Of a stretch of DNA of 64,000 nt, positions 17,701 through 48,663 are shown piece after piece. The notes under the pieces were generated by a model that saw nothing but the letters and a program-made list of their open reading frames with translations, did no database searches and was not told the origin of the DNA. Position 1 is the stretch's first letter. Every line of letters starts with the position of its first letter. The DNA comes from Spironucleus salmonicida. Taxonomy: Eukaryota. Both the position numbers and the translations under genes were made by a program. The DNA is taken from the NCBI RefSeq assembly GCF_000497125.1, contig NC_090597.1:1065797-1129796 (forward strand), written 5' to 3'.

Positions 17701-19431
17701 AAAAGCTGTAATAAAGAATAAAATAATTTTCTGTTACAAATGCAAAAAATATAATTTATGTGTGTATACTGAATGTTTTGCTTGTATTTCTTAGCTTAAA
17801 ATATAAAGATAGTAATTATTATGAGTATAATGTATGATTTAGTAAATTAGGGACGGGTGACTAAAATTTCGACAATATATTATTTAGACCGCAAAGATTT
17901 TATTTTGTTAAATAGAAAAATGATTATATAAGCTTAATATAGTTAATTTAGGTATTATATTAGAAAATAATATCAAAACTATATTCAATAAATTTATTCT
18001 GCTAAGAAGATGTTTAAAATTGTTAATGCTAGAATAATCTAGGAACCTTGTTTATTTATCAGAAATTCAAGTGTACATATAATTAATAAATGTTAAGCTG
18101 CTAATAGTCAGCTAATTTAGAGTTATACTATGATAATAAGAAAATATACCTAAAGCTAGTAAGTTTTTTGTCAATAATTAATTTGTGGTAAATTTATATT
18201 AATCCTGCATAAAGTGGACTAAAGTATTCGATTTTTGATAAAAACTATTTTAATCGGTTAGTACATCTATAATATATTGTATTATCAGTATAATATGAAG
18301 GTTTGTATAAATAATAAGATTATTTATACATTATAATATAGTAAAATTAATGATGTTAGATGTTTTCCAATTTGACTTCATGTTGACTTTTATATTTGAG
18401 TTAATGAAAATTAATTAAATATAGTATCAGCACTATTATACAGAATAAATTTACGAATTTTTTCACAAATATATAAAAATCGATTTTAAAATATTAATCT
18501 TTATTTCTATATTATATAACAATATAAATATAAAGTCAAATAATATTACTTATATAATGTGTTATTATCTTTCATTCTATTATAAAACGATATTATTATG
18601 TTATTATTCCAGTTAATAAATTCTTTGATATTTGTAGAGATTGCACAATTCACTAATTTCTTCAATTAATCTTTTAAAAAATTATAAAAAGTTTATTTTA
18701 TTTATATTGTAATTCGTTTTTCTTTTTAGTGTGATTGTATTGTATATCATTTATTTCATTGTTATAGTATTAATTAGATTTAACATAGTAAAAAAGTTAT
18801 GCTAATAATAAAAATGTTATGATACATACTAGTATTATAAATAATATAATATTAGATAAACAAATTTAAAAGAATATATCGATATTAATTGGTAGATATT
18901 TAGCGCTGAACATCTTAGTCTTGTTTTTTCATCATAAAATTATTTGAAAAAATATATTATTAATTCATATAATTAAAAATTATATATTTGTTTCTAAAAG
19001 ATTTTTTAAAATTATTTACTTTAAAAATCTTAAAATTTTAGTAATACTAACACATTAAAACTATAAATAAGAATAGTACTAATGAACAAGTAGCTTAACT
19101 ATTACTAATTAATTTATATTTATCTCCTAATTATAAAAAATCGATTGTAATTAATTCCTGAGTAATCTTTCTGTATCTATCTATATTTACTAGCTTTGTA
19201 ATTGTTATTTTTTAAGATTTACTTTTATGTGAAAAACAAATAAAAATATTATTTTTAATCGATTGTCATTATTAGGCTGCTTCAATATCTTCTATATTTA
19301 TATCCTTTGTTAGCTTAATATTTAATAGTAATTGATAACATATTTTAATGGATAATATACAGTAATTAATAGTAATAAAACGATTCTTTTCCTAAATTTC
19401 CACTATAAAACATTGTAAAATAAATTAAACT

Positions 19432-19680
19432 TCAATCACCGCACTCAAAATCCTCAGAACCATCTGTAAATGCATAAGTAACATCATTAGGCGTCCAAAC
19501 TTATTCTATTGTAGAGTCGCTTCCTATGTCTAAATCAAATAATTAAAGCTACTAGCAAGAAATCACAGGAATAAGAATTCCTCCAAAACTATCCTATATA
19601 AAGTTAAAATCAGTCATTTAACTAGATTTAATTAGCTACAATGATCGACTGTTCACCATCTGTTGTTTCAAGCGCTTCAT
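19432..19680 (-). CDS. Small hypothetical protein (82 aa)
   Basis: Code-6 ORF MKRLKQQMVNSRS...EDFECGD*, divergent from the Nup98-like gene. No homology recognised. Confidence 0.3.
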
Positions 19681-19877
19681 TTTTCAAACGGAAAAGAGTA
19701 CAATCAATAAAATTCTGTATATAGGATTTTCTATTGTGTTTAATTTTCAAATGTCAACTGTTTATTCTATATGAATTTATGTATAATTTTAGTTCGCTCC
19801 ATTTTAAACTATAAATATACTATTATATCATTTAATTGAATTAATATAATTTTCACTCCAATCACTTCAAAAATTGA

Positions 19878-20525
19878 ATGGCGTTCAACTTTTCAGCACA
19901 GCCAACCTCCGCATTTGCCCCACAACCCACTGCAAGAGGTAACACCATCCAGCTTAATACCGGAAATTCTACACTGGCGGCCTAACCTATTTCTCGCTCA
20001 ATTCCCACATTCGGCGTGAAACCCTCAATGTCAAGTTTCGCTACCTAGAAAATAGACGCGCAGTTGGAGCCAAAATCATTATTTGATAACCTGCTGGTCC
20101 GCCTGGCGCCTTACAAACAACCTGCAAAAGAGCTCCTTAGAGAGCTCCAAATTCACGACTCGTTCGCGGAGCCGCAGCTACCTTCGCGTTTTAGCTCGTC
20201 GTTCCAGACGTAGCCAGCCCTGCACGCCATCCAGAAGTCTGATAAAGTGATGTTAAAGCTCAGCTCAGAGCATGGATCCGTGGAATTCATTGATCCCTTG
20301 ACCGTTAAGGAGCTTCCCGACGATCTTGATACAATCATCATGATACAACCCGGTCAGGTGACCGTGAACGTCCCTAATGCCTGCATCTGCACTCTCAGCA
20401 ACATCGCCGCGGAGGGTAGCAATACTACCGAACGGGCATCCTACATGGCACAGCTTTCAATATAAAACGGTGTTGAATTCGTCTAGTATTTTGATGAGAG
20501 CGGGTTGTGGGTGTTCAGGAAGTGA
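19878..20525 (+). CDS. Nup98/Nup145N-like nucleoporin with a C-terminal peptidase-S59-like domain (215 aa)
   Basis: Low-complexity N-terminus with Phe motifs (MAFNFSAQP...PTFG). C-terminal HGSVEFIDPL...DLDTIIMIQPGQVTV...CTLSNI...GVEFVQYFDESGLWVF matches the Nup98 autoproteolysis-domain pattern. Confidence 0.7.
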
Positions 20526-21349
20526 TATTATGTAATATGTGTTTAAAATTCCAGTGGAACAGAATAATATAACTTATTATTATATATAAATTTATATATG
20601 TAAACACTGATATGGATAATATTTAAACATTTTTACAAGTATTCTTGTATGTGAACTTTAAATTAACGATTGATAACCATTTATAGTTTATTAAACGTCC
20701 CTTAGTCTAGTTGTAGAGACAAAATAGCCTGTTTTTAATGGTACATTTTTAACAGATTATGCATTTAAAATATGGCTTAATTCAACCTTTTATCACTGTA
20801 ATCACTAAAGGCGGCAAATGATTAGTTGTTACCTGTTATTTTGTTTGAATTAAAAATATATGTTTTAGTCTACATTTTTCGTTGATAGTTCGCACAATAT
20901 ACTAATAATTATTATAAAATAATTACTTTTGCATGTAAAGTATTCCCGATCGAAAATCTTTATTATTAAATAATACTTTACGATTTATACCAATTAACAT
21001 TAAAATTATTTATGTTATCTAATAAATTAAAAACATATATTTTTCGATAAACTTATTCTTCCTACAATAATTTATGATAATAAATTTTTTCTTCTCTAAT
21101 TTTACTTAACTGATACCAATATATTAACATATATTATAGATTATTTTAGCAAGAAAAATCGACAGCTATTAACTTTTACAATATTTTATAAATCATATTT
21201 TCCCACATTACAAAATCTTTATACAAATCTATTAATATATACTCTGAATCCATATAATTATATCTTTATATTTTTACTGTAAAAGGAAGTAATTACTTCG
21301 CTATATTCTTCAATATTCATTATTATCAGTTTACTCTACTTCTGTAAAA

Positions 21350-23128
21350 ATGTCGAGCTCGTGTACTGCTGAAGATTTAACAACCTGTGACGAAAAATTC
21401 TTCTGTCTTATCGCCGGTGAAGAAGCAGATAAGACCTATACTTGTACCGCCTGTGCTTCCCCATGCGAAAATTGCGAAACTGCTGCTACCACCTGCACAA
21501 GCTGCATCAATGGTTTCAAGGAACCAGTTAATAACGTATGCACAGAGTGCAAAGATGCATTTTTCCCTTCAGGTGAAACTCCTCCTACCACGTGCACCGC
21601 CTGCGACGCGAAATGCGCAACCTGCACAGGAGTTGAGGCCACCTCCTGTTAAACCTGCACAAACGGTAATTCGTTAACTGGAACTACCTGTTCCGCCTGT
21701 GTTTCAGGAGAAACCATGAAGTGCACCTGTGGCTCCGCTACTAACTGCTCGACTTGCGATTCCACTGATATGACAAAATGCGCCGTCTGCGCGAATGGCA
21801 ATTTCATTTCTGAGAATGTCTGCACAGAGTGCGTAGCTGATCAGCCCACCTCTTGCGCGTGCGGTACCGCAGTTAACTGCGCAACCTGCGCCGATAACAT
21901 GAAATCTTGCGCTAGCTGCAACGGTAACTATGACTTTTCTGCAGATACTCCTTGCTCGAAATGCAAGGCCAAGTTCTTCGAGAGCGAAACCGAAGGAACT
22001 AAAACCTGCGAAGCCTGCGACGCGAATTGCGAAAATTGTGAGATTTCTGCGACGGCCTGCACGAGCTGTCCCGTTGGTTCTGGGCTCAAAGAGAAAATAT
22101 GCAAAAAGTGCTCTGCGAACTGCGTGGAATGTGGTGCGGACTCTGATGTCTGCACATAGTGCGATGATAGCTCAGCTCTAAGCGAAGGTGCGTGCATCAA
22201 AAACTGCACCAATGACACTGACTGCATCGCCAACCAAATCTGCGACACCACCTGCTAGGACTGCACCAGCAACTGCGCAACGTGCGAGGGGGCCGTCACA
22301 ACCTGCAAAACCTGCCTCCCTGAATTCGGAATCAAAGACTTGACCACGTGCGTAGCTTGCACTGAAAACTGCGCAGCTTGCGCAATGGACTCAACGGTAT
22401 GCACAGAATGCAAAAATGGCAATATCTTGAATACAAATGTTTGTACTGCCTGCACGGAAAACATGGAAACCCAGTGCAAATGCGGCGAGCTGATCAACTG
22501 CGCCACGTGCGATTCTGCCGATGCCAGCAAATGTAAGTCGTGCATTGCCAGTTACAAGGCTGGTACTGACGGTGCCTGCAATCTTTGCGCCGACGGCTAC
22601 TTCATGGATGGTGAAAAATGCGGTAAATGCGGCGAAAAATGCTCCAAATGTGAGAAAGACGCCAACACGTGTACTGTATGTGCGGAAGCTTATGTAATGA
22701 GCATAAATCAGACCTGTGAAGCAAAATGCGGCTCCCTAAATGAGAACTAAGCCTGTGTTGATGGAAAGGCGGTTGATTGCGGTGCTGAAGGCCAAATTAC
22801 TGGTTGCAAGTGCGGTGCCGCGATAAACTGCTTTGAGTGCGATAAGTCAACGCCATAAGCTTGTGGCAGCTGCCTTGTTGCGTACAATTTTGAGAATTCT
22901 GTTTGCAGTTCGTGCAAAGACCTAGTTAGTACGCCTATAGGCGAATTTTGTATACTTTTATAACCTGAAGCCGAAAAATCTAGCAACAAAATCTCTGGAG
23001 GTGCCATTGCAGGTATAGTCATCGCAGTTATTGTGGTAGTCGCTGCTATCGGTGGCGGTGTCTTCTGGTACATGAAAAAGTCCAAAGCTTCGTCTACCTC
23101 GAGCAGATCCGATGCTGCTATGCAATGA
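21350..23128 (+). CDS. Cysteine-rich membrane protein (CRMP), 592 aa
   Basis: Intact code-6 ORF with CXXC repeats, [29 protein letters not shown] and tail MKKSKA. Confidence 0.9.
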
Positions 23129-23630
23129 TACAATTTAAAAATTCACTATTACTCACCCTTGAGTTCAGAGGTTGATCTTAAATTTGCGCAGTTTCAACGG
23201 ATTAACGGTATTCTAGACCAGCTGAGTATTGCAGAACTGAACATAATTCCTAGTATGCTGTATCAAATTAAAGTGCAGATGGAAGTAAAAATTTTAGGAG
23301 GTGCAATATATCGAATGACAGATTAGTTATATTTTGCTCTTTTATTGATGGTTGATATTGATCAATTCATGGACAAAATAGTAAATTTAGTGATGGAACT
23401 GAGTTACTTGGTATTATATAAATTGCACAGCGGCAGTTAAGGCTGAAACTGCTTCGCTAACCGTAGGTCAATTTTAATAAATGATACGCTGCTACTAAAT
23501 TATGAGCAAATATTCCATATAAATAAGAATAGATTTTTCTAAAATAACTACTATCCAATTTGATTAATAATTAAAGATTAAAATTTTAACTATAAAGCAA
23601 CAGTTAAGTTTAATATGTATTAAATCCATT

Positions 23631-23634
<4 letters not shown>

Positions 23635-23674
<40 letters not shown>
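23635..23674. repeat. (AT)n microsatellite
   Basis: About 20 AT units. The paralogous site near 39680 is much shorter. Confidence 0.9.
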
Positions 23675-23678
<4 letters not shown>

Positions 23679-23804
23679 TGTAAACTTACTGAATGTCAAA
23701 ATACACAGTACAAATTATTAAAGCCTCTAAGGTATTTTACCATTACTATTTTGAGTAAGCTATATTTTAGAAGTCGAAACCAAATTTAAACAAGAATTTG
23801 CATA

Positions 23805-25668
23805 AGTAGTAAGTGACCCGTAGATAAAGTATGATTTCGTCATCTCCAATTTTACAAAAGGGAAGTCATGATTATGGTAGCAGCGCGTACATTAAAAGGA
23901 TTTGAATGTTTTGAAACTGAAGTTGACAAGAGGCACACTTTTACTCTGTAGTATTTACTACTAGTATTATCTTATAAAATGTGGAACTGTTCGATTAACT
24001 ACTTCAATTATGGTTACGCTCTCATTTTACCATTTATAATATAATAATTAATTGATCCTCGTCTATGTATTTATAAACCGGTTATAATAATTGTGTTGTT
24101 TATTTTTAATGAGTCTGCAGTATCTTAGTAATATTAATATTATACTTTATCTAGTACTTATATTAAACCATACTCTTGTTTAATTTACTTCCTATGTGTA
24201 ACTATTGTTGAATTCCTTTCCTATTCTTAAACATGCTTAAGATCTGCTTTCTCAGTAACTATTACAATATATTTAACTTTATACTTCCCACCAGGACTTA
24301 AAAAATGAATTACAAATCGATGCAAGATCTTTTCTAAAATAATATGATGTATTACCCCTTCTTTCTTATATAACGTTATCTCTTGTTAAGCATTTGCTGT
24401 CTTCTAATACTTTAGCAATGTAAGGATCTTATTTATAAATAATACCTTTCTTATCGAATCCTACTGATACTTAATATTACACATCAGAATTATTAAGATG
24501 TTTTACTATTACATGTGTAACCCATAATTTGCTGAGCATTTCTTTTGTGTATAAAATTATTTAGTGTTCCTCCTCCTAGCGTTAGAATATATTAACTAAA
24601 TTTTATACTCTACGCTCATGCAATACTTACTCCTATTATTTTTACTTTTTAAGAACGTCTAATTCCTCCAAAGTATTTATAATAATTCGCCATCTCCTTT
24701 CGAATAGCTTCATAATTGTTTTCCTCTAGGTATTTTTATTATTATTCTATACTGTCTTTATTAGGACTAAACTCTTTGCCATATTCAAGTAAGAAGTCCA
24801 TAATAGTTGTTATAAAAGGCTGTCTTGTGGGTAACCTGTCAAGATTAAGTTAATTAGAAGTTTTACAACTTTTGAACAGTGTAATACAAACTTCTCATTA
24901 TTTAAATTAACGCCATGATCGTTCGCTTAAATTCTAGCTAGTAATGTTTCGCTAACTGTGCCACTTTATTAAAAGATGGTCGTCAAATCATAATCTTTTA
25001 TAAAATTAACAATGTAGCATTCCCGGATAGAAAAGCTAATAGTACTAGAAACCGTCTAATAAAGTTAAGTTTACTCTTATAAATTAATATAAATTATAGC
25101 TGATTTATAAAAGCAGTTACTAAGTATTCTTTCTAAGCGATTCTATGTTTCCTATTAGTTTAATGGATGGTAGGTTAAACCTGTTTCTGCTTGTACTTTC
25201 TTAGTAGTTATTTTGAATTTAGGAATTATTTTACCTTACACTCTTCCGGTTTGTGCATTAACTGAATGACAGATTGCAAAACAGTTCTACGTTTAATATA
25301 ACACTTATTATTCTATACTCTTCGTGCAATTCTTCATATATATTTTTAATGAACATCTACAGAAATGAGTTTATAAATATAATTCTTCATAAATCAAATT
25401 AAATAGCTTGTTAAGTATCTAATATTATTAGTAGTATGCAATACGTACTAAAAGCAAAGACTTGTTAAAGTCATTTTCAAAATATACAATCCTTTTAGAG
25501 CCGTGTTGCTCCCGTAAAAGGCTTGAATGTTTTAAAAATAACTTTCCCAAGATTTATACCTTTAGTAAGTATTATATAATACTGCCAGTTCTATCCCATA
25601 GAATCAAAAGTAGAATTGGTCTCTCTTAAGTTTTGAAAAATAGTGATCAACTCTTAAACTTAAAAAAA
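23805..25668 (+). repeat. Left terminal inverted repeat of element A
   Basis: Reverse complement of 32973-34836, same length, with a few clustered mismatches. Starts AGTAGTAAGTGACCCGTAGAT. Confidence 0.95.
24252..25646 (-). CDS. TIR-encoded reading frame, possible divergent DDE integrase (left copy)
   Basis: Mirror copy of the TGA-free frame at 32995-34389. Coordinates were derived from the TIR mapping. Confidence 0.4.
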
Positions 25669-25792
25669 CATTACTCTCAGATTCGAATTGATCAGCCTAT
25701 GGTTTAAAATAGAATTCATTTTAATCAGATAAGACCAAAAAAGTAAAAGCATAAATTTGCTATTTTAAAAACATTTTTTTTAGTCTAATAAA

Positions 25793-28700
25793 ATGGAACA
25801 CAACCACACAGCACTTGTATAATCAAACATTAAGGGTATTCTACAAAAGCTGCAGTAAGTTACATAACAATACGTCAAGAGGGAGTTATCTCTTTAAGAG
25901 TACTACCAAAAATAATAGTAATACAAGTTATATATTCATCATATTAAATTATTGAAAAATAAACTAGTTCAAATATCAAAGGATAATTTAAATGATTCTT
26001 AAACTAAACTATTAAAACAAGAAATTAATAAGATAAGGAAGATCTGATCGTAATAACAATCAGATAAAATTGATATAGATTAATACAAGAAATATTAAAA
26101 AGATTACAAGCATATATCTATTTTAAAAGATTAAATAAAGTAGAACAATAATTAAATATCACTCATACTAGAAAAATAAATTTCATCTGTATATAAAAAC
26201 AAATAGATTAAATTATTAAGAACTAAAACAGAAAAGTATAATGAAATGATCAATAATCTAAACGATAGGGTTTAAGGAGTTGTCTCATAGAAAATAATTA
26301 GATAGTTGAATGACATAATTACTAAAATTAATTAGACTCAAATGCTTTGGTCAATGAATAAGTAATTGACTATGATTAATTTAATGTAGAAGATGTTACC
26401 TTTGCTGAAAGAATTAATGGAGAGTTCAACTTACTATAGATGATGCTTCCTCGTATTGAATCGATAGAATAATTTTTAAAGGAATTCGATAGGAATACTA
26501 CATTCTAAATTTATACAGAACAACCTTTGATAGGTTAGTAGATAAATATGAGCGGATATGTGAACTCATTTATTTTTACAAAAATATAATTTATTGGTCA
26601 ACATGGTAAGCTTATACCGTTTAGGTTACTATTTTAAAATTAAGAGACTAATATTTTAAAAGAAATCTTTACTGAAATAATAAGAAGCAGTATAAAGTAT
26701 TTCGGTGTGTAAATAAATGAGAATGAGTTAGTATCATTTTCAAATATTGGAATTAAAAAGTTTAAGGACTTGACATCGATAAAATAGTTAATTAACTGTT
26801 TGAAACACTTGATACATTCTATAAGATGTTTAATGAATGGGATCCGACTTATGACTACGGATTTTAAATAGGCTTACTTCGCAAAATTTCAGGAAATGCA
26901 TATGAAGAAGATAAATAAATAAAATATCTTTATAAAGGATCAATATTCTTTGTTAGAAATAATGATGAAAAATATTTATATGCAGCAATAATTTCAGCAT
27001 TCATTAAAAAAAACAACTTATTGTTAATGGTAAATATACTTTAAAAATTAATAATTAAATATACATGATTCCTAAAAATGCATTCAGTCATGGAACATAA
27101 CTGAGAAACGATTCAATAAATAATAAAAGTTAAAACTTATATTTATTTACTTAGTTATTATTTGGATTTATAAGCATTGTTGGAGATGATTTATCAGGGG
27201 AGGAAATAGTTTAAAGAGCAGAAAGCGTATTCGAATTAAATATACTAAGATTAACATTAGCAAATTAAAATGATATCTTACCATCTCGTACAGAAGATTT
27301 ATTACTTGTTCAAAACAAAACAGCGAATTACAAAGGGCATTACAATGTAATTATGGAATATAAATAATACGTAAATACTATCAAACCACTCTACAAAGAT
27401 TATAATTATTTTTATGAACATAGACTGTTTACATACCGTAAAAACAAATGTAAAAACTGTGTTCTAGTAGGAGCAGTTGTTCAAGAATATTATTGTTAGC
27501 TCTGTTGTTACAAACATGAATTGGATTAAAATAATATGAATCATTAATGCGAGAATTGCAATATTAAATTAAACCATGAACCTAATACTAAATGCTTAAA
27601 AAGATATAATGATATTTATTAATTATTTACGCCTTTTGTTAATTGTGGTAGAGTTCATAGTAGATCAAATAGATGTTATGCAAAATTATAACATGATGAG
27701 CTATACTTTAAAAAGGGGTTGCTTAAGAAAGATTAAAAGTCATACGTAGTTTGGGATATTGAAAGCTACTTTGAAAACGTTCCAGAAGAATTAATAGATA
27801 AAGCTTCAATGCAACACATACCGTTTTTAGTATCTTGGTATATAATGAAATATGATAGAGCGAAGAATTAATATACTTAACAAGACTTCTTTTATAAAAA
27901 CAACCTTACATTTATACAAGATGGTAACTTTACTCTATCAAATGATTAATTCCTAATTAAAATTATTGATCATATCAAAATTGTAGCAATGAAATATAAA
28001 GTATACGATTTCTACTGTCACAATGCAGCTGCGTACGATAACTATTTATTACTATCTGAATTATCAAAGTACGGAGTTGAAAACTATAAAACTGATAGTA
28101 TAATTAATAATATCAAACTACTTCAACTAAAATTGATAATATATATTTTAAAGATTCATTTAGAATCATTCCTATGCCACTGTCTAAATTAAATAAAGAC
28201 TTAGATTTGAGACTTGTTGTAGGAAAATAACCTCAGTCATATACATATCTAATTAAAAATATGTCTGATTCATTTATTAATAGAGGAAGTATACTAATGG
28301 CTATAAAGCAACTTGTAGATTCAAACACCCTTTAGTTAAAACATTTCAATAACTTATCAAAAGATGAGTTTAATTAATATGTAATTGATTATGGTCATAT
28401 TGACTATATTACTTAATACATAAACTACTGCATTCAATACTGTTTCGTTTTAGCTGTAGCAATAAGGAAGTAAATTGAAATCTCACTTCAGGAATAAAAA
28501 GTCAACATCATTAATTATTTAACAGCACCAGCAATGGCCATAAACTTATATACTCATAATTGTGTTTCATAATTGTAAAATGGATTCTAAGATTTAAAAC
28601 ATAATAAATCTAAATGTAAATACAAGCTGTCTCAATTAATTTAATAAGATATTTAATCAACAAATAAATTATTAGATACTGGTTTTAATTAAATATCAAA

Positions 28701-30654
28701 TATTTTGTATAATTAATAATTCAAAGGATCAAGATACAACATTGATAGAGTGTTCACGACTGATAATAAGAAATATGGTCTTGAGTTAGATGGTACCTTT
28801 TATAATGGATTAAAAGAACTAAGTTGCAAAGATGAATACCATATATTATAACAATAAAGATTAGAAGCTTATAATAATAATAATTAATATTTAAATAGTA
28901 AGATGGAAGCCAACAGCTTTGAATAAATATTTCATGTAACTGACAAGCAGTGTATACAATTCGAAAAAGATAACAATATAAAGATAGAAGTACCTAAACG
29001 TTTTGACATAACCAACAGATCAATCTTGACTGAAGGAAGAGCATAGTGCTTTACAGATCACATGAAAATAAACAAGAAGAAATTTAAGATGTATGGAATT
29101 GATTTCACATCACTGCATCCATCTGCAATGGTATTTTGAAACTTGTCATTAAGAGATTTGGTTATTTAAACGCATTACGGGAACACTGTTTATGATTCAA
29201 AGATACACGATAAGTATAATATTAATTAAATCAAATTTAAAATAGATTATAAGTATATTGGTTAATTAAAGTTGTATGTTAAATAGATTCCAAGAATCAT
29301 TAACGCTGAAACAAGACTGTAGTACTTCTTATAAGGATGTGATAAACATAAAAGATTGATCTAAATCAAATATTAAATGCTTCCTCCATAATTATTAAAA
29401 TACCCATTTTTAGGAACTAATATTTGCGGTAAGTTACTATATCCACTTTCTAGTACATGTTCAGGATAGAAATGTTTAGATGCAAACAATCATACACGTT
29501 GCAACCACAATGAAGATGAAATAATACATAAAGGATTCTGGCATGAAACTGAATTGATAAATGCTTTATACGAAGGATATAAGTTCGGAGACATATACGA
29601 GACACATACTTACTAAATATCAAGTTTTAATGATAACGAATATTAAGGAGGAGATTTCATTAATTCATAGATGTTCAACTAGACACTGAACTCAGATGAA
29701 GATGATTATAAGGATGAAACTGTACTAAAACAATTAGCAAATGATTGTGACTTTGATTATATTTATAAAGATGGTATAGCATCAATCAAATAAAAAAGAT
29801 GAATTTGAATATAGATAAATCAAACTAAATTAAGGAGTAAAAATTTTTTATAAGTTGTTATTAAATGCAACGTATGGTAAGATAGGTCAGAATGTTGTAA
29901 GACCAACTGAGTCATTTGCCAAAGGTGAATTCCTTTTCGGCATGCATGATGAAGAGTTACATAGGGATTATAAAATTGTATTTATTAGATAAGGTATGAG
30001 TAAGAATATTTATACATACGAAGAAGAATTATAATAGACATAAAGAACTTAAGCAAATGCATCCTTAGCAGGAACGACAACAGCAGTAGCAAGAACTATG
30101 CTTAACACATTAATAAGATATGTAAATGATGAACTAAAAGGAGTTGTTTTATATGCTGATACAGATTAAGTTTATTGTGTTTTGGATAGATCAAAGTTCC
30201 TAAACCTAACTTCAGTAACCTTCAAGAATACATACTCTTGCAAATGCGAATAGAAGCTTGGTCCAAATGAATGGGTTTGTATAGGAGCAAAGCCATATGC
30301 ATACACAGACCGAGTTAGATATGCATATACATCAAATGGTATCACATTAGATAAAACAGGTATTATTGAAGCAGATGAAGGGAAGCTTGCTCATGTATTC
30401 GATATTTATAAATCAATATTATTTGATTAAATATAATTTAATGAGGATGATATTATTTAAATGAAAGACTCAAACACTGAGACAAAAGTGAAACAGGAGT
30501 TAAACTTTATAAGAAATAATAAAATATATAACATATATACTCATACAAGATATAAAGTAATTAGATAATAGTAATAAAAGAGGCTTTTGACTTTAGTTCA
30601 AGACCTGATTAAATATCAACATTGCCTTTTGGATATGATAAAGTATAAGCGTGA
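25793..30654 (+). pseudogene. Protein-primed family B DNA polymerase polyprotein (Polinton type), disrupted
   Basis: Motifs in order: WDIES (ExoI, 27752), HNAAAYD (ExoII, 28019), FKDSF, DFTSLHPSAM (motif A, 29101), KLLLNATYGK (motif B, ~29852), YADTDQ (motif C, 30152), GAKPY, C-terminal TLPFGY. Contains several frameshifts and in-frame TGA (e.g. 29137). Confidence 0.92.
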
Positions 30655-30732
30655 TTCATGTAATCCATTTTGGATTCCGATTCACTTTAGCGAATTACTT
30701 TAGTCGCTCATTTTTTGTATTAATAAAACAGC

Positions 30733-31801
30733 ATGGAAAGCAAAGCTTCCCGGACGCCTTCAGCGCTCATGGAGTACAATATCCAATCAGACGAAATTAA
30801 ATTTTTGAAATTAAAAAAAATGAAATAATGAGTTACGGTTATGGTTATTTTGGACTGATGGGTTCAGCATGAACAGGAAAAACGTATTCAATGAATAAAA
30901 TAAATTAAGCATATTAAGATTAAAGTAAACTATCAAAGTATAATTTAGATGATGCTCATTTAAATAATGGAGCTATAACTCATACGTTCTTCTGAAGTCC
31001 AACTATAGATTGTGATTAAACTTATTAAAAATCAAAAGGCAAAGACAATAGAATTAATATACCATTTGTTGATTTGAATGGAATAAATTCAAAATAAAAG
31101 CTATTAATGTTATGCTAAGAATTATAGAAAATGAAAACCATTACAAATCTATCACTGATAATACAAGAATAAATACTAACTACTTTAAAAGATAAAGAAA
31201 TTAAAAAATGGAGATCAAAAATATTCTTTCAAGTTTTCAAAAACATACTTTCACAATTCGAGTGGGTAAAGCAATAGTAGTAAGAATGTTTAGTTTTATA
31301 TAAAGACTGTTTAGGTGATGATGTGGATTAGTATATGTAGTTGCTGTATGAATAAATTGGATTGCGTTATAATAAATATTGGATACGAAGATAAAAATAG
31401 TTTTATTCTTAGATGACATGAGCGGGAGTTCAGTATTTCAAACTACAACTGAATCTAATTTCTATAAACTAATTATTTAAAGAATACATCTTGGGATTTG
31501 GGCGACCATTTAATGTTTACATTCTATTAAGATACTGTATGGATCTTTTAGATAGTTGTTTACAGCTTTCTTGTTAATGAAAGGTCTCAAGGAAGAACAT
31601 CTAAAAGATATCTTTGAGGACATTAGAAGGATAAGAAGTTAAGAATTTAAATCAAAATAGTTTATTGAATTGTATAATAGAACCATTGGCTATTTTGGAA
31701 ACGACTATTCGAAGAGAGGACAGTTCAAATATAGTTTTTTATATATAATTATTTAACCAGACCCAATGATCTTTATAAACTTTGATAAGCAAGTTAAGTG
31801 A
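30733..31801 (+). pseudogene. A32/FtsK-HerA-like DNA packaging ATPase, disrupted
   Basis: Walker A GSA*TGKT (TGA at 30870, likely from GGA). Walker B IVLFLDD (~31400). RIHLGIWATIQ resembles the RHxxx...Q arginine-finger motif. C-terminal FLYIIIQPDPMIFINFD. Confidence 0.8.
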
Positions 31802-31861
31802 GTATCTGTTAATTTTTATCTACATTTAAATGATAGTACCTTCATTTTTTTAACCAAAGAA

Positions 31862-32269
31862 ATGGTAAAGTTCATAAATATAAAACTACTGATTGAAGAA
31901 AACAAAAGAGACGATCTCGCATTCATCGAAGTAATAGTAAACAATGAACCCATAAAAATAACTAAGGAAACTAGTACTAAGCAGAAATTTGAAAGTAATA
32001 AAGTATATAACAAAGTTGAATAAATAAGATTGCTTAATAAAGATAAACAAGTAATAGCTGTGTTACCTTAAGAACTTGCACAATAGAACTATTATCATAC
32101 TCCTGATGTCCTTAGCACTAAGCAAGCCTATAGCAAGTATATAATAATTAACAAGATTGAAACATGTCATTTTGGTACATACTATAAACAAATCTAATAT
32201 TTATTAGATGAAAAACAATTGAAAACTATTTAAGCTATTGAGCCAGCTTCAAGAGAACTATATTTCTGA
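31862..32269 (+). CDS. Element-encoded hypothetical protein (135 aa)
   Basis: Intact code-6 ORF MVKFINIKLLIEE...SRELYF* inside the element. Confidence 0.6.
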
Positions 32270-32386
32270 TCCAAAAGGATTTAAGCAAAAAAAAATAAAA
32301 ACCAAATAACTATGGTCGCCTTTGGGCTTCCACTTCTTAAAGATCATAACGTATATTTTAAAGAAACCTTTTTTTAATAAACAAAA

Positions 32387-32944
32387 ATGGATCGATAAGC
32401 AATAGTTAAAGATCAAGAAGCAAAACCAACTTACAAAGAAGCGATATAGGTTCTGTAAAAGTAAGATAGCTTAGAAGACTATTCAAAAGAGGTTATCAAG
32501 TATATTGAAGTACTTCCAAAAAGTTCTGATGTTGAACCTCCAGGTAAAGTAAACTTCAGCCAAGCTAATTATAATAACATGCAATCGTCATTATTGAAGT
32601 TTGAAGAGGATAGTTACAATGCTAAGTTTGGATACTATAATAAAATACTAATAGCAAGATACATTTCCTTAGAACTAACACACAGACTGTTGTATGATAT
32701 GGTTGAATAAGTTGTAGCGTTGTCAGGGTATTGTTTTAAAGGCAAGAAATAGGATGACATTAGACTGTACAACACGATGATTATTTTAGATACAATTTTG
32801 TAAGAAAACTAATCAACTTCATCTAAACTATGTAAGATTTATTTATAAGAATTAATTAATAAACTTTTGAAAAACAATAAACGAAAAGATCTTATTAAGT
32901 TAGTTCAGAATCTATTTTAGATAGTAACTAAAATGTTTACGTGA
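32387..32944 (+). CDS. Element-encoded hypothetical protein (3' end uncertain, possibly frameshifted)
   Basis: MDRQAIVKDQEAKPTYKEAI... preceded by the same T-run/TAATAAA motif as the other element genes. Confidence 0.5.
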
Positions 32945-32972
32945 TGTGGAATCTGAAACTGTTTTTAAAACT

Positions 32973-34836
32973 TTTTTTTAAGTTTAAGAGTTGATCACTA
33001 TTTTTCAAAACTTAAGAGAGACCAATTCTACTTTTGATTCTATGGGATAGAACTGGCAGTATTATATAATACTTACTAAAGGTATAAATCTTGGGAAAGT
33101 TATTTTTAAAACATTCAAGCCTTTTACGGGAGCAACACGGCTCTAAAAGGATTGTATATTTTGAAAATGACTTTAACAAGTCTTTGCTTTTAGTACGTAT
33201 TGCATACTACTAATAATATTAGATACTTAACAAGCTATTTAATTTGATTTATGAAGAATTATATTTATAAACTCATTTCTGTAGATGTTCATTAAAAATA
33301 TATATGAAGAATTGCACGAAGAGTATAGAATAATAAGTGTTATATTAAACGTAGAACTGTTTTGCAATCTGTCATTCAGTTAATGCACAAACCGGAAGAG
33401 TGTAAGGTAAAATAATTCCTAAATTCAAAATAACTACTAAGAAAGTACAAGCAGAAACAGGTTTAACCTACCATCCATTAAACTAATAGGAAACATAGAA
33501 TCGCTTAGAAAGAATACTTAGTAACTGCTTTTATAAATCAGCTATAATTTATATTAATTTATAAGAGTAAACTTAACTTTATTAGACTGCTTCTAGTACT
33601 ATTAGCTTTTCTATCCGGGAATGCTACATTGTTAATTTTATAAAATATTACGATTCGACGACCCTCTTTTACTAAAGTGGCACAGTTAGCGAAACATTAC
33701 TAGCTAGAATTTAAGCGAACGATCATGGCGTTAACTTAAATAATGAGAAGTTTGTATTACACTGTTCAAAAGTTGTAAAACTTCTAATTAACTTAATCTT
33801 GACAGGTTACCCACAAGACAGCCTTTTATAACAACTATTATGGACTTCTTACTTGAATATGGCAAAGAGTTTAGTCCTAATAAAGACAGTATAGAATAAT
33901 AATAAAAATACCTAGAGGAAAACAATTATGAAGCTATTCGAAAGGAGATGGCGAATTATTATAAATACTTTGGAGGAATTAGACGTTCTTAAAAAGTAAA
34001 AATAATAGGAGTAAGTATTGCATGAGCGTAGAGTATAAAATTTAGTTAATATATTATAAAGCTAGGAGGAGGAATACTAAATAATTTTATACACAAAAGA
34101 AATGCTCAGCAAATTATGGGTTACACATGTAATAGTAAAACATCATAAGAATTCTTATGTGTAATATTAAGTATCAGTAGGATTCGATAAGAAAGGTATT
34201 ATTTATAAATAAGATCCTTACATTGCTAAAGTATTAGAAGACAGCAAATGCTTAACAAGAGATAACGTTATATAAGAAAGAAGGGGTAATACATCATATT
34301 ATTTTAGAAAAGATCTTGCATCGATTTGTAATTCATTTTTTAAGTCCTGGTGGGAAGTATAAAGTTAAATATATTGTAATAGTTACTGAGAAAGCAGATC
34401 TTAAGCATGTTTAAGAATAGGAAAGGAATTCAACAATAGTTACACATAGGAAGTAAATTAAACAAGAGTATGGTTTAATATAAGTACTAGATAAAGTATA
34501 ATATTAATATTACTAAGATACTGCAGACTCATTAAAAATAAACAACACAATTATTATAACCGGTTTATAAATACATAGACGAGGATCAATTAATTATTAT
34601 ATTATAAATGGTAAAATGAGAGCGTAACCATAATTGAAGTAGTTAATCGAACAGTTCCACATTTTATAAGATAATACTAGTAGTAAATACTACAGAGTAA
34701 AAGTGTGCCTCTTGTCAACTTCAGTTTCAAAACATTCAAATCCTTTTAATGTACGCGCTGCTACCATAATCATGACTTCCCTTTTGTAAAATTGGAGATG
34801 ACGAAATCATACTTTATCTACGGGTCACTTACTACT
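32973..34836 (-). repeat. Right terminal inverted repeat of element A
   Basis: Ends ...ATCTACGGGTCACTTACTACT. Inverted copy of 23805-25668. Confidence 0.95.
32995..34389 (+). CDS. TIR-encoded reading frame, possible divergent DDE integrase (right copy)
   Basis: 465-codon TGA-free frame, first ATG at 33304. THF...CFAIC could be a degenerate Zn finger. IQANDHGVNLNNEKF resembles SDNGxEF. FERRWRII is a candidate catalytic E. FDKKG lies near the C-terminus. Confidence 0.4.
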
Positions 34837-35966
34837 GTAGTATATCTTTGTGAAAATTAATTAATTCATATTTACGTTTATGTTTTCCTATTATCCTATC
34901 GACGGGTTATCTGTATGAATTGTGAACGATTTATTTTTATCAAATTCAAGGATAAACTATTGTACTGCTTCAATGTGTAGTAACCTCATTTAGTTAATCA
35001 TAAAATTGGCATTGATTCTTTCATCAAAATTAACGATAAGTATATTAAATGCATCATAATTTATTTATAACTATTTAATATTAACTGTCGATTACTATTA
35101 TTTAATTTTGGTAATTATATTTTGTAATTATTTAATTCTGTCTTCGGAAATGGATCCTTAAACCCTATCATTCATATTTTTAATTATTTATTTAAATTAC
35201 TCTATTTATGCTACTAGTAAATTAAATTATTTATCACGCCATTCTTTTGAAATAACATGTTAATTAAATTTATAATTATTGTTTAGTATTTTTAGATTTG
35301 CGTTATTTATTTCGTTTTATAAAATATTCATATGTTTGAATGATCTTTCGAATTCCTTGTATTTATCCAAATTAATATTATTGATGTGTTATTCTGTTTA
35401 AATCGATTTGATTTAGTTGATTTATTATTTTAATTTTTTAACTTGATAGATTGATAAATCATCTTTTGCTATTCTATTTATTTTTAATTCAGAATTTCAG
35501 GATGATAAAGTTATAATTTATATTGTTTTTACTTCATATTTGAAAAATGTTGGATCTAAAGAGTTATCTTTACTGCATTTATATTTTCTGTTAAGATCTT
35601 GTCGTAATTTAATCCCATTTTTTCATATATTAAACAAATATCTTTTTTGAATTCAATTTATTGGGGATTATATCCTTTCCATTTTTGGGGATAATTGAAA
35701 TAAATTATGTGTATTTATATTCTATTTTTGGAATTTTTGTTTTTTTAAATTTTTATATTCTATTTTGATGATTTTATTTGGTAAAACTAATCTGGAATTC
35801 AACTGAAAAATCCTGCACCGGGGCGGCCCATCCATACCCTCGATATCTTTAGAAATTGGGGCGAGGAGCGGACCATTTGATTGAGCACTGGTTTTTTACT
35901 GATTTGATTTTTTTTGAAATTTTGATTTCTCAATACTGTAGAAATCTACGGGCGGAAGGGACTACT
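34837..35966 (-). mobile_element. Truncated Polinton-like element of a second family (element B): one terminus plus the 5' part of the pPolB ORF
   Basis: Minus-strand terminus AGTAGTCCCTTCCGCCCGTAGAT. The ORF from 35618 aligns with the element A pPolB N-terminus (NDRVQG; FDERINANF...EFDKN...IFTKI versus FAERINGEF...EFDRN...IFTKI). Confidence 0.8.
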
Positions 35967-36226
35967 AACTATGGTTGTTCTTCCCCAATTTTACTTACCT
36001 GATGGCAATATATCATAGATTATTTTGCAAAAAAAATGACAGATATTAACTTTTATATTATCCTATAAATTATATTTTCCGCCATTATACAAGTTTTATA
36101 CAAATTGATTAATATATATTCTGAATCCATATAATTATATATTTTTATTTATATTGTAAAAGAAACTAAATACTTTATTCTATGCTTCAGTATTCATTAT
36201 TATCAGTTTACTCTACTTCTATAAAA

Positions 36227-39172
36227 ATGTCGAACTCGTGTACTGCTGAAGATTTAACAACCTGTGACGCAAAATTCTTCTGTCTTGTCGCGGTTAGTGA
36301 TGGTTCAGATACGACCTATACTTGTACTGCCTGCGCTTCCCCATGCGAAAATTGTGAAACTGCTGCTACCACCTGCACAAGCTGCATCAGTGGTTTCAAG
36401 GAGCCAGTTAATAACGTATGCACAGAGTGCAAAGATGCATTTTTCCCTTCAGGTGAAACTCCTCCTACCACTTGCACCGCCTGCGACGCGAAATGCGCAA
36501 CCTGCACAGGAAGTGCGGACAGCGCCTGCTAAACCTGCACAAACGGTAATTCTTTAACTGCCACTACCTGTTCCGCCTGCGTTTCAGGAGAAACCATGAA
36601 TTGCACCTGTGGCTCCGCTACTAACTGCTCGATGTGCGCAACTGATATGACAAAATGCGCCGTCTGCGCGAATGGCAATTTCATTTCTGATAATGTCTGC
36701 ACGGCATGTTAAGATAATTAACTGATTGCTTGCGCGTGCGGTACCGCAGTCAACTGCGCAACCTGCGCTACTGATAACATGAAATCTTGCGCCACCTGCA
36801 ACGGTAACTATGACTTTTCTGCAGATACTCCTTGCTCGAAATGCAAGGCCAAGTTCTTCGAGAGCGGTATAGAAGGAGCTAAAACCTGCGAAGCCTGCGA
36901 CGCGAATTGCGAAAATTGTGAGATTTCTGCGACCGCCTGCACGAGCTGCCCAGCAGGTTCTGGGATCAAAGACTAAAAATGCGAAAAGTGCTCTGCGAAC
37001 TGCGTGGAATGTGGTGCGGACTCTGATGTCTGCACATAGTGTGATAATAGCTCAGCTCTAAACGGAAACGCGTGCATCAAAAACTGCTCTACCAATGCCG
37101 ACTGCAGCTCCAGCCAAATATGCGACACCACCTGCAAGGACTGCACCAGCAACTGCGCAACGTGCGAGGGGGCCGTCACAACCTGCAAAACCTGCCTCCC
37201 TGAATTCGGAATCAAAGACTTGAACACCTGCGTAGCTTGCACTGAAAACTGCGCAGCTTGCGCAATGGACTCAACGGTGTGCACAGAATGCAAAGATGGT
37301 CATATCTTGGGCGAAAACACCTGTACTACCTGCATTTCAGGAGATACCAGTAATTGCACCTGTGGCAGCGCTACTAACTGCTCTACTTGCAATTCTATTG
37401 ATAAGACAAAATGCGGAGTATGCGCTAATGGTAATTTCATGGGTGAGAATATCTGCACGAGATGCTAAGATAATCAACCCACCCCTTGCGTATGTGGTAC
37501 TGCAGTTAACTGCGCAACCTGCGCCGATGATATGGCATCCTGCGCTACCTGTAACGGTGAATATGATTTTCATACTGTTCCTCCTTGCTCAGAATGCAAT
37601 ACAGGGTATTTTAAGAACTCTGATACCCCAAAAACCTGCACAAAATGCGACGCGAAATGCGCAACCTGCACAGGAAGTGCGGACAGCGCCTGCTAAACCT
37701 GCACAAACGGTAATTCTTTAACTGCCACTACCTGTTCCGCCTGCGTTTCAGGAGAAACCATGAATTGCACCTGTGGCTCCGCTACTAACTGCTCGATGTG
37801 CGCAACTGATATGACAAAATGCGCCGTCTGCGCGAATGGCAATTTCATTTCTGATAATGTCTGCACGGCATGTTAAGATAATTAACTGATTGCTTGCGCG
37901 TGCGGTACCGCAGTCAACTGCGCAACCTGCGCTACTGATAACATGAAATCTTGCGCCACCTGCAACGGTAACTATGACTTTTCTGCAGATACTCCTTGCT
38001 CGAAATGCAAGGCCAAGTTCTTCGAGAGCGGTATAGAAGGAGCTAAAACCTGCGAAGCCTGCGACGCGAATTGCGAAAATTGTGAGATTTCTGCGACCGC
38101 CTGCACGAGCTGCCCAGCAGGTTCTGGGATCAAAGACTAAAAATGCGAAAAGTGCTCTGCGAACTGCGTGGAATGTGGTGCGGACTCTGATGTCTGCACA
38201 TAGTGTGATAATAGCTCAGCTCTAAACGGAAACGCGTGCATCAAAAACTGCTCTACCAATGCCGACTGCAGCTCCAGCCAAATATGCGACACCACCTGCA
38301 AGGACTGCACCAGCAACTGCGCAACGTGCGAGGGGGCCGTCACAACCTGCAAAACCTGCCTCCCTGAATTCGGAATCAAAGACTTGAACACCTGCGTAGC
38401 TTGCACTGAAAACTGCGCAGCTTGCGCAATGGACTCAACGGTATGCACAGAATGCAAAAATGGCAATATCTTGAATACAAATGTTTGTACTGCCTGCACG
38501 GAAAACATGGAAACCCAGTGCAAATGCGGTGAGCTGGTCAACTGCGCCACGTGCGATTCTACCGATGCCAGCAAATGCGGGTCGTGCATTGCCGGTTACA
38601 AGGCTGGTACTGACGGTGCCTGCAATCTTTGCGCCGACGGCTACTTCATGGATGGTTAAAAATGCGTTAAATGCGGCGAAAAATGTTCCAAATGTGAGAA
38701 AGACGCCAACACGTGCACTGAGTGCACTACAACTTATGTAATGAGCATAAATCAGACCTGTGAAGCAAAATGCAACCCCTTAAATGAGAACTAAGCCTGT
38801 GTTGATGGAAAGGCGGTTGATTGCGGTGCTGAAGGCCAAATTACTGGTTGCAAGTGCGGTGCCGCGATAAACTGCTTTGAGTGCGATAAGTCAACGCCAT
38901 AAGCTTGTGGCAGCTGCCTTGTTGCGTACAATTTTGAGAATTCTGTTTGCAGTTCGTGCAAAGACCTAGTTAGTACGCCTATAGGCGAATTTTGTATACT
39001 TTTATAACCTGAAGCCGAAAAATCTAGCAACAAAATCTCTGGAGGTGCCATTGCAGGTATAGTCATCGCAGTTATTGTGGTAGTCGCTGCTATCGGTGGC
39101 GGTGTCTTCTGGTACATGAAAAAGTCCAAAGCTTCGTCTACCTCGAGCAGATCCGATGCTGCTATGCAATGA
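36227..39172 (+). CDS. Cysteine-rich membrane protein (CRMP), 981 aa; paralog of 21350-23128 with internal duplication
   Basis: Intact code-6 ORF. The last ~130 codons are essentially identical to the first copy. Confidence 0.9.
36482..38458 (+). repeat. Intragenic direct repeat, ~810 bp (36482-37294 and 37646-38458, offset 1164)
   Basis: Near-identical sequence. Identical ORF fragments at 36779 and 37943. Confidence 0.9.
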
Positions 39173-40071
39173 TACAATTTAAAAATTCACTATTACTCAC
39201 CCTTGAGTTCAGAGGTTGATCTTAAATTTGCGCAGTTTCAACGGATTAACGGTATTCTAGACCAGCTGAGTATTGCAGAACTGAACATAATTCCTAGTAT
39301 GCTGTATCAAATTAAAGTGCAGATGGAAGTAAAAATTTTAGGAGGTGCAATATATCGAATGACAGATTAGTTATATTCTGCTCTTTTATTGATGGTTGAT
39401 ATTGATCAATTCATGGACAAAATAGTAAATTTAGTGATGGAACTGAGTTACTTGGTATTGTATAAATTGCACAGCGGCAGTTAAGGCTGAAACTGCTTCG
39501 CTAACCGTAGGTCAATTTTAATAAATGATACGCTGCTACTAAATTATGAGCAAATATTCCATATAAATAAGAATAGATTTTTCTAAAATAACTACTATCC
39601 AATTTGATTAATAATTAACGATTAAAATTTTAACTATAAAGCAACAGTTAAGTTTAATATGTATTAACCCCATTTTTCATATATATATACATATTATTTG
39701 TAAACTTACTGAATGTCAAAATACACAGTACAAATTCTTAAAGCCTCTAAGGTATTTTACCATTACTATTTTGAGTAAGCTATATTTTAGAAGTCGAAAC
39801 CAAATTTAAACAAGAATTTGCATAATAATTATAGTGTATAGTTGTTTTATGCAAAACCTTCATTTCACATCCGATTTGTAAAAAAAAGTATAAGTAATGA
39901 TGTTGCAAGAACTAAGTAACATATTTATATATGTATTTTAAAATAACTTATACAATATAAATTAAAATACACAGCAATATTATTAATTACTGATTAGTAG
40001 ACGTATAAACCCTAACAATTCACTTTTATAAATTTAAAGCGTATAGATAGCTTTGATATCTGAAATCTAAA

Positions 40072-40449
40072 TCATTCTATTAAATCTAAATCTGCGAAAA
40101 AATCACAGCGAGTCAGATTAGAATAATATTATTTTAATTATTCGTCAATTATTTTAGATTTTTCATAGTAAAGTTCGTTCTGTATTTCACGTTAATATTC
40201 GTATTTTTTGTCAATTTTTTGCATAAAATGATCTAAAATTTAGTTATCATCGTGCTCTTTTAATCTCTAAGTTTTAATGGGACTCATAATGCTTCCTATA
40301 GGTTGTTTTAGAAGTTCCTTGTAAGTAATAGTTGACTTATGCTATTATCTAGATTTTGGAGAATTTTGCTTGATTTAATAGATATTTAGTGTCTTAATCT
40401 TCATACCCGTGTATTTTAAAATCGGTTATAAAACTATCTCTTTTAACAT
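40072..40449 (-). CDS. Hypothetical protein (125 aa), tandem paralog of 41101-41502
   Basis: KSRQQHKSTITYKELLKQP...DDNQILDHFMQKID aligns with the neighbouring gene. Confidence 0.7.
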
Positions 40450-41100
40450 TTATTACAACTACAATATCTTAATATATATTTAACAATGTAACAGTTTGCT
40501 GTAAACTTTTTATTTAATTTACTTAGCAATATTATAGAAAATTAATAAGATTATTAAAGTATATAAAGTGACGAAAATAATTATTGAGAAAAGGTTAGAT
40601 AAATAATAATAGCTTATCTAATTAATAAATATATATTACCCATTTTTATGAATAAAATTAACATATAATTTATGGTACTCATTTTTCTATATAATTGAAT
40701 GAACTAATTTGAGTGGTACTTATTTTTATGGAAGATTTACAGTGTGTATCATATAAAATTAGGTAAGTAACTAACACGCGGTCAATAAATTATTAGCAAA
40801 TTAAGCTTTGAGAGTAAAATTAAATTAGTAATCAGAGAATTCAAGTAAATCCAGTCTTAAGAAAAATTATCCAATCATTAAATTACTTATTAAATATATT
40901 TATTCTTTATAATTATATTTTGTGTTTAAGATCTTGTCCAATCCTATAAGTTTTGCAAGGTAAATTTTGTTGTACGACTGAATGTAGTCTACTATAATAT
41001 TTACATATCCAGTTATTAAGTTAAATATAATATCCTAGTAATTTAACTCTGTTTCAAATACACTAAATAATTAAAATATGAATACCATGATCATAAACAC

Positions 41101-41502
41101 TCAATCAAACTGATTAAAATCTACAAGTATATCATCATCCTCCATATTTAATTAATATTATCGTAATTATTAATTAACAACTTTACATGTAGCGAAGTAA
41201 ACTTTGTTTTATTATTCTCTTTGGACTTCACATTATTAGTCTATCCGTTGCATAAATGTATCCAGAATTAAATCTTAATCATCTTCGCGCATTTATCTGT
41301 TTTTAAGAGGTGTTAATGAACTTGCTAAAGGTTACTATATTATTGTTTTATAAGAAATAGTAGATTTATGTTACGCTCGAGGTTTACTTAACGAAGGTCT
41401 GGTTTTATCTATTGTTATAGACTTAAGAACGACACTAGTAGAACCCATATTTGGTGAGTTTAGATATTTTCGTAGCATTTATGGGAGCCTATAAATGATC
41501 AT
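41101..41502 (-). CDS. Hypothetical protein (~125-133 aa), tandem paralog of 40072-40449
   Basis: KPRAQHKSTISYKTIIQQP...DDQDLILDTFMQRID. Alternative start at 41478. Confidence 0.7.
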
Positions 41503-43761: not shown

Positions 43762-44149
43762 GGCACTTTTGGGAATTTTTGTGGAAGGGGATAATGCTAA
43801 TTATTATATAATAATATGGTATTGTGATAAAATGCATAATGTATATTGTAGAAATAACTAGTGAATGCTTGTGGATATTTGGTAATGTTGAGGATGATAA
43901 AATATAGTAGTAGGGATATATAAGTAATATGGCTTGGTAGACGTAAATGATAAGATGAATAGATGAGTGAAAATTTAGGGTTAACTTGCTAGAATGCTGT
44001 TCTTAATTAGTGCATTAATACTTTTTGCAATATAATTGAGCAGTATTGCGTAAATAATTTTTGGGAAATTCTGTAATTATAGCTGCAATATTGAGTTAGT
44101 TTAGTTAAGAATTATGTAAGATCTGGCGACGACGTGAATGGAACTTCAA

Positions 44150-44533
44150 TCATTGACTCTTATCAGAAAAATCATTTTTAACCCCATATGCAAATAGCAT
44201 GTCTATTATCTCTTCTATTTCTTCATTTTCTATGTAGTCGTCGAAGGGAACTCGTATGGCCCGTATTATAGTACTAAATACTAAATCTTACGCATCTACC
44301 ACGCATTATTATGATATTCTACATATAAGGTTAGTTTTCTAAGGCATAGAAAGGCGAAATAATAAAAAATGTAGCATATCTGTATCAACTACCTGTTTTC
44401 GCGCTAAAAGCACTACAAAATCTCCTTGTATCCGAATTTTACTGTATATAGAATCTCTTACAAGCTATCCGACTTCTTTTTGCACTGTAAATGATGAAGT
44501 AGGTGAAGAATACCTAAATTCATATGGAGGCAT
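44150..44533 (-). CDS. Hypothetical protein (127 aa)
   Basis: MPPYEFRYSSP...DKSQ* with a C-rich motif just upstream of the ATG. Confidence 0.55.
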
Positions 44534-48643: not shown

Positions 48644-48663
48644 GTGAGAGGCTTCGAATCACG

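Follow-up and report, generated by a model that had tools for sequence, protein, structure and literature searches.

A dead, probably trans-replicated element with long terminal inverted repeats in the genome of Spironucleus salmonicida

This work concerns a window of 64,000 nucleotides (contig NC_090597.1) from the genome of Spironucleus salmonicida, in which the segment 23805-34836 (hereafter E) is bounded by long terminal inverted repeats (TIRs) and contains the remains of a long polymerase gene. On balance, we favor the view that E is a dead and non-autonomous copy of a multicopy S. salmonicida family within the supergroup of protein-primed, “self-synthesizing” TIR elements, by which are meant Polintons/Mavericks, Polinton-like viruses and linear plasmids. 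E is thus read as a dead member of this supergroup which was probably replicated in trans. It cannot be shown to be a Polinton or a virus, and the “hidden virus” announced by the first-pass annotation, made from the letters of the window, is unsupported and goes too far. The same annotation had deduced a code-6 hexamitid diplomonad as the host, and this was correct.

The inverted repeat is real. Its left arm (23805-25668, plus strand, GC content 0.27-0.28) and its right arm (32973-34836, minus strand) are each 1864 nt long and, in a gapless comparison, differ by 14 mismatches, clustered at 24485-25053, and by no indel (99.25% identity), so that the exact 1864-bp repeats with AGTAGT...ACTACT ends described earlier are borne out. 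The inverted-repeat search had returned arms of 1886 nt, its gapless extension having continued for 22 nt beyond the repeat, where the flanks are unrelated. Both ends of the element read AGTAGTAAGTGACCCGTAGAT. TIRs with AG...CT ends are part of the definition of Polintons/Mavericks, and the termini of E match this end rule. The terminal motif AGTAGT-N6-CCCGTAGAT is found at the left end (23805-23825, plus strand) and at the right end (34816-34836, minus strand), and the same motif, with a spacer of eight nucleotides (AGTAGT-N8-CCCGTAGAT), marks a third terminus at 35944-35966; in the general form AGTAGT-N6-8-CCCGTAGAT, it thus occurred three times in the window and in none of 100 shuffles. Among the short-read contigs, one ended exactly at 34836, others, overlapping by 30 nt, extended into the unique flank, and one skipped 161 nt inside a TIR arm. 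The orphan open reading frames (ORFs) mentioned in the first-pass annotation are present, but the longest, a 464-codon frame within the TIR, was met or exceeded in length in 5.4% of 500 shuffles, had no Pfam or PHROG family, and found only itself among 5.8 billion clusters (255-812 amino acids); the TIR frames were accordingly rejected as genes.

Between the arms lies a long gene on the plus strand (25793-30808), readable as a path of about 1670 codons from a first ATG at 25793 to a stop at 30806 (25793-30805, about 5.0 kb), and predicted to encode a family-B polymerase of the protein-primed type (DNA_pol_B_2). When its 3' piece (29690-30805) was compared by phmmer with 1.84 billion representatives, 20 proteins were retrieved at E<=0.001. 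Ten of these were scanned against Pfam: all eight from outside Spironucleus carried DNA_pol_B_2 (E 2.6e-9 to 2.5e-57), and both Spironucleus fragments carried no family. A profile built from six relatives was then compared with all 1085 six-frame pieces of the window, and it matched four colinear pieces of the element, at 26969-28207 (E 0.003), 28096-29136 (E 1.5, not significant), 29140-29799 (E 2e-14) and 29690-30805 (E 2.5e-25), no other piece of the window falling below E 0.1. PHROG 1907, annotated as “DNA polymerase”, was also matched (E 4.2e-11), and a Foldseek search with the model of one relative, P0025, placed phi29 polymerase at ranks 1-5 (E 2e-3 to 1e-2, TM 0.29-0.35). The best match from outside Spironucleus, P0009, was 31% identical, and a protein search aimed at named reference polymerases returned metagenomic relatives of P0009 only. 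The conserved blocks (an LNSLWGKFGQ-like motif B, YxDTDS, PKxYAY and KGITL) are common to relatives from metagenomes and from animal genomes, P0020 being a spider genomic fragment.

The motifs of such an enzyme follow one another in the expected order, ExoI, ExoII, ExoIII, A, B, C and KxY, with ExoI (VVWDIES) at 27746, ExoII (HNAAAYD) at 28019, A (DFTSLHPS) at 29101, B (KLLLNATYGK) at 29873, C (YADTDQ) at 30152 and KxY (AKPY) at 30284. They are preceded by an N-terminal extension of about 650 codons, coiled-coil-like and then Cys-rich, which belongs to no known family. The reassigned code of the host is needed throughout. In the window, the Cys-rich VSP-like genes and the eRF1 gene are open under table 6 only, where TAA and TAG encode Gln. 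Each of the four polymerase pieces contains 15-23 such codons and the relatives align through them, which confirms code 6 for the element. The polymerase can be read in no other way, and the claim that the element uses the TAA/TAG=Gln code of its host therefore stands.

The gene is nevertheless a pseudogene of the DNA_pol_B_2 family and not a working member, being disabled by six breaks and altered at three catalytic residues. The reading frame changes four times, near 26325, 27006, 28100 and 29792, and two in-frame TGA codons interrupt it, at 26045 and 29137; moreover, the ExoIII Asp is replaced by Tyr, the motif A Tyr by His, and the motif C Ser by Gln (TAA). The first-pass annotation, which had described a protein-primed polymerase gene of about 4.9 kb with all motifs in order, was thus right about the motifs and their order, but not about the intactness which this description suggested. 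The breaks at 29137 and 29792 are not long-read errors, since both sites lie within short-read contigs that match the window exactly (29052-29576 and 29752-30231). Relatives continue without interruption across the frame change at 29792 and have Gly at the site of the TGA at 29137. TGA as a further sense codon was considered and rejected, these codons interrupting conserved sites, after motif A and inside the Walker A motif of the next frame (see below). In the latter frame, all nine contigs of short-read run X1 that cover position 30994 have T in place of G, which turns the TGA at 30993 into TTA in those copies. The in-frame TGAs are ordinary nonsense mutations and not a recoding.

The family is multicopy in S. 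salmonicida. Contig pieces with 90-100% likeness to the stretch were found in two short-read runs (231 in X1 and 236 in X4), indels distinguish further copies from E at 26325, 27006 and 29778, within three of the four frame-change zones, and annotated protein fragments of this species are 48-98% identical to the frames of the element. Summed contig depth relative to the unique flank, which is a hint only and not a copy number, reached about 3-5x over the polymerase and 12-30x over 30.6-32.4 kb. Runs X5 and X6, which we guess to be RNA, yielded contigs with 90-95% likeness across 26732-29143 as well as a 176-nt piece that is identical, from which nothing is concluded as to transcription. It was also observed that the segment 30597-32356, which comprises the P-loop frame described below and the frame after it, stands several-fold above the polymerase in depth, and that a single site in it is covered by as many as 12 different contigs; deletion derivatives, or a sub-family present in greater abundance, may account for this excess.

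Downstream of the polymerase, the plus strand contains a candidate P-loop NTPase (30639-31801), in which Walker A and B motifs were recognised by eye, followed by two open frames of 155 and 224 codons (31802-32941) without any recognisable family. The former had been called an A32-like ATPase, an identity without profile support: it comes down to a Walker A/B pair in which Walker A (GSA-TGA-TGKT, 30861-30884) contains a stop at 30870 and Walker B (IVLFLDD, near 31391-31411) lies in a different frame, with the further in-frame TGA at 30993. Its best Pfam match was AAA_30 (E 0.14), neither Pox_A32, FtsK nor another Pfam or PHROG profile was matched, the PDB gave no match, and no relatives were found within 143-455 amino acids. 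Folded from its sequence alone, the 224-codon frame gave an all-helical and uninformative model (pLDDT 42). In 25 translated pieces of this copy, which took in the TIRs as well as both strands, neither RVE nor any other integrase was detected, nor, with Pfam and PHROG sequence profiles, any capsid or protease gene, nor, in Pfam scans, a plasmid-type RNA polymerase.

These data bear directly on the possibility, which we regard as unlikely, that E derives from a bona fide Polinton/Maverick virus-transposon, whose autonomous relatives would encode an RVE integrase, a maturation protease, a double jelly-roll capsid protein and a packaging ATPase, the present copy being a deletion derivative integrated by that integrase. 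The DNA_pol_B_2-type polymerase, with conserved blocks shared by metagenomic and animal-genome relatives including the spider fragment, the TIRs with ends starting in AG, and the P-loop frame downstream of the polymerase would all be in line with such an origin; so would the high contig depth over 30.6-32.4 kb, if it corresponded to many deletion derivatives, although depth is not copy number. By contrast, the RVE, protease and capsid families were absent from the 25 translated pieces, the candidate ATPase matched no A32 or FtsK profile, and the 6-bp duplication expected at the insertion site was seen neither at E nor around the composite insert described below, so that the signatures universal among Polintons are lacking and the Polinton-like DNA virus of the earlier claim was not recovered in this copy. 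Viral contigs point the same way. Among 1926 ORFs from 80 IMG/VR contigs carrying related polymerases, none resembled any part of the element other than the polymerase at E<=0.01, and all 16 other matches fell elsewhere in the window. One of these contigs, the environmental L001 (16.4 kb; 1-13588), contains a gene for a 1165-amino-acid DNA_pol_B_2 protein, 69% identical to P0009 and related at 31% to the polymerase of E, beside a 1380-amino-acid ORF and six smaller ORFs; these seven other ORFs had no Pfam family above the curated cut-off.

The surroundings of E indicated that the locus was invaded at least twice. The segment 34837-35966 (minus strand) represents the terminal part of E0, an older relative, as shown by the shared terminus motif and by a homologous ORF start. 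Its coding part, a single open frame running on the minus strand from 35496 down to 34837, corresponds to the first 220 codons or so of the long ORF, and 34837-35535 resembles 25910-26592 of E with 40-48% amino-acid identity (E 3.6e-54) and 65% nucleotide identity. The terminus motif and the ORF start are separated by 442 bp in E0 and by about 2.1 kb in E, and E0 is cut exactly by the right end of E. A continuation of E0 in the left flank was rejected, the resemblance having been seen by eye without any tblastx match. Comparison of the flanks (left ...TGCATA; right GTAGTA... at E and AACTAT... beyond E0) revealed no target-site duplication, either at E or at the composite E+E0, and the 6-bp duplications which the first-pass annotation proposed to seek genome-wide were thus absent from both.

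On both sides lie tandem copies of a host segment. S1 (21086-23804, plus strand) comprises a Cys-rich VSP-like membrane protein gene (21350-23128) and its 3' flank, and S2 (35975-39824, plus strand), its direct duplicate with a gene at 36182-39172, starts within 9 bp of the E0 terminus. The region 21086-22429 matches 35975-37309 with 89% identity, and 21602-23804 matches 37646-39824 with 94% identity, the homology stopping exactly at 23804. The composite E+E0, 12.2 kb in length, is thus flanked within 9 bp by tandem surface-protein gene copies. GC content is 0.27 in the element, 0.41-0.44 in the flanking genes and 0.37 in the whole window. As regards the host genes themselves, the assignment of the S1 gene to the VSP family is weak, both copies share an identical C-terminal transmembrane tail, and the second is longer (996 versus 592 codons) because of an internal duplication. 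Two (AT)n microsatellites of 40-58 bp were also noted, at 23635-23674 and 54116-54173, the first of them 130 bp left of the left end of E.

From a mechanistic point of view, protein-primed replication of DNA ends with slide-back is known from phi29, adenovirus and linear plasmids, and E fits such a process through its type of polymerase with a long extension at the N-terminus, its TIRs and the AGT repeated at its ends. The functional ancestors of E would thus have been linear DNAs copied from both ends by their own polymerase with a protein primer, perhaps provided by the N-terminal extension, and the AGTAGT reiteration would have enabled slide-back after initiation. The arms contain no indel in 1864 bp while the polymerase gene contains four frameshifts, which fits arms that were last equalised while a helper copy replicated a genome that was already defective. 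Entry into the chromosome most likely occurred through capture of linear DNA by host break repair, a route independent of an integrase which is suggested by the lack of both RVE integrase and target-site duplication in this copy, and the entry of E probably replaced most of E0. Two scenarios may be proposed for its placement. E0 may have been inserted first and later replaced for the most part by E, one junction using the terminus common to both and the other being made by end joining; alternatively, capture of linear DNA may have been accompanied by a kilobase-scale duplication of the target.

Several observations weigh against our interpretation. The Pfam DNA_pol_B_2 model (PF03175) matched no translated piece of the window directly, so that the HMMER comparison proposed in the first-pass annotation succeeded through the profile of six PF03175-type relatives but not with the family model itself. 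In addition, a profile of the Spironucleus relatives found no match in the PDB, and the family assignment is therefore transitive. The structural resemblance is also weak, the P0025 model, of low confidence (pLDDT 51.4), giving no match at E<=0.001. The relatives identified are fragments too (<=709 amino acids) with catalytic losses, P0004-type proteins for example having Gly for the motif A Asp and Gln for the KxY Lys, and there is no sign of a functional helper. Priming by a protein, the slide-back, replication by a helper and capture through repair are steps that we infer. Furthermore, a single decayed copy without integrase and capsid genes is little guide to the family as a whole, and sequence profiles such as those of Pfam and PHROG often miss capsid proteins. 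Finally, our model does not account for an insert located precisely between tandem duplicates of the host.

A related but quite improbable alternative is that E is the chromosomal relic of a plasmid-like linear replicon without virion stage, with a terminal protein fused to its polymerase, which entered the nucleus by accident. Yeast cytoplasmic and fungal or plant mitochondrial linear plasmids do have such terminal-protein/polymerase fusions, and E shares with them its TIRs, the absence of an integrase and of a target duplication, and a long N-terminal extension of no known family that possibly served as primer. Against this, at least two insertions of different ages (E and E0) at one locus, together with the presence of several copies in the chromosomes, look like repeated rather than accidental entry, no plasmid-type RNA polymerase was found among the translated pieces, no extrachromosomal form is known, and diplomonads are not known to have a mitochondrial genome in which such plasmids could reside. 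A precedent in favor of this alternative comes from Entamoeba histolytica, whose Polinton-type polymerases, according to PMC3511435, are likewise without linked integrase, protease or ATPase.

It is very improbable that E is not a mobile element at all and results from an inverted segmental duplication of the host or from an assembly artefact enclosing a polymerase pseudogene: the window does hold a second large, perfect inverted duplication (47020-51884 / 58947-63810), which shows that such structures arise in this genome or assembly, and the TIR mismatches are clustered, but the arm-end motif recurs at a third, independent terminus, similarity with the paralogous site of the host breaks off exactly at 23804, short-read contigs either terminate at 34836 or, overlapping by 30 nt, reach into the unique flank, and the polymerase family is multicopy.

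As for known systems, E, in our preferred reading a dead member of the supergroup, resembles Polintons/Mavericks, such as those of Trichomonas vaginalis and Entamoeba invadens, by its TIRs, its DNA_pol_B_2-type polymerase with a long N-terminal extension, its AG-start ends with a short reiteration, the P-loop frame after the polymerase, and its metamonad host. It differs from them in that RVE integrase, 6-bp duplication, protease and capsid were not detected, and by its size (11 kb versus 15-20 kb), its unusually long TIRs of 1.9 kb, its code-6 genes and its state as a dead copy. Some Polinton-like viruses, according to Yutin et al. (2015; PMC4642659), also combine a protein-primed polymerase and long TIRs without RVE integrase and protease; their core of major and minor capsid proteins and packaging ATPase was, by contrast, not found in E. 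The closest resemblance is with the solitary Polinton-type polymerases of E. histolytica, another parasitic protist (PMC3511435). There, the EhDNApolB2 proteins have an N-terminal domain without known homology, the catalytic residues are kept, and one enzyme was active. Every Spironucleus copy seen is broken, yet TIRs and termini are preserved in E.

A protein-primed polymerase is not new as such in diplomonads, since one from Giardia intestinalis (“Giain”) already figures in a published tree (PMC4642659, Fig. 6), the legend of which gives no element structure. The novelty suggested by the first-pass annotation would thus concern the element and not the polymerase: a full-text literature search found no description of such elements in diplomonads, where they seem to be undescribed, although the supplements of PMC11787283 (repeat tables) and PMC10120064 (host lists) might list them. 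The passages searched in the two S. salmonicida genome papers mention neither transposons, mobile elements, viruses nor polymerases, and the Hexamita paper gives a RepeatMasker count of 29 DNA transposons in S. salmonicida without detail. The Spironucleus genome papers thus appear to have overlooked at least one multicopy mobile family, adjoining variant surface-protein genes.

Self-synthesizing elements are central to ideas relating eukaryotic DNA viruses, transposons and plasmids, and within metamonads they are well known in Trichomonas only. A TIR-bounded family with a protein-primed polymerase in a diplomonad with a reassigned code would extend their host range, and it offers a case in which integrase and target duplication are apparently absent. 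The terminal motif provides a handle for collecting the whole family from diplomonad genomes. The copy being dead, its direct biological effect is limited to genome structure. A more speculative extension, which we hold to be doubtful, is that hexamitids harbor a distinct lineage of integrase-less, protein-primed linear elements with an origin-like AGTAGT-N6-8-CCCGTAGAT terminus, recently replicated by helpers (in view of the 99.25% identity of the arms) and entering chromosomes by host break repair, in some cases at the expense of older copies and with kilobases of the target being duplicated. Such a duplication would explain why the 12.2-kb insert lies exactly between tandem surface-protein gene copies, and a still-active element or virus using the TAA/TAG=Gln code might then exist in Spironucleus or its relatives.

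Elsewhere in the window, AT-rich intergenic islands (GC content 0.22-0.28) occur at 4001-6000, 18001-20000, 40001-42000, 44001-46000 and 54001-56000; they were considered as further copies of the element and rejected, having no DNA or protein similarity to it. The open frame 8990-14734 comprises 1914 codons, 121 of them TAA or TAG, and has no Pfam family. The perfect (100%) inverted duplication at 47020-51884 / 58947-63810, about 4.9 kb long with one small break and a GC content of 0.63-0.66, carries a papain-family cysteine protease gene (50503-51369) and a gene with an RCC1-like domain (47567-48643), for which no TAA/TAG codons are needed, and the 7-kb spacer between its arms holds the eRF1 gene (56888-58201).

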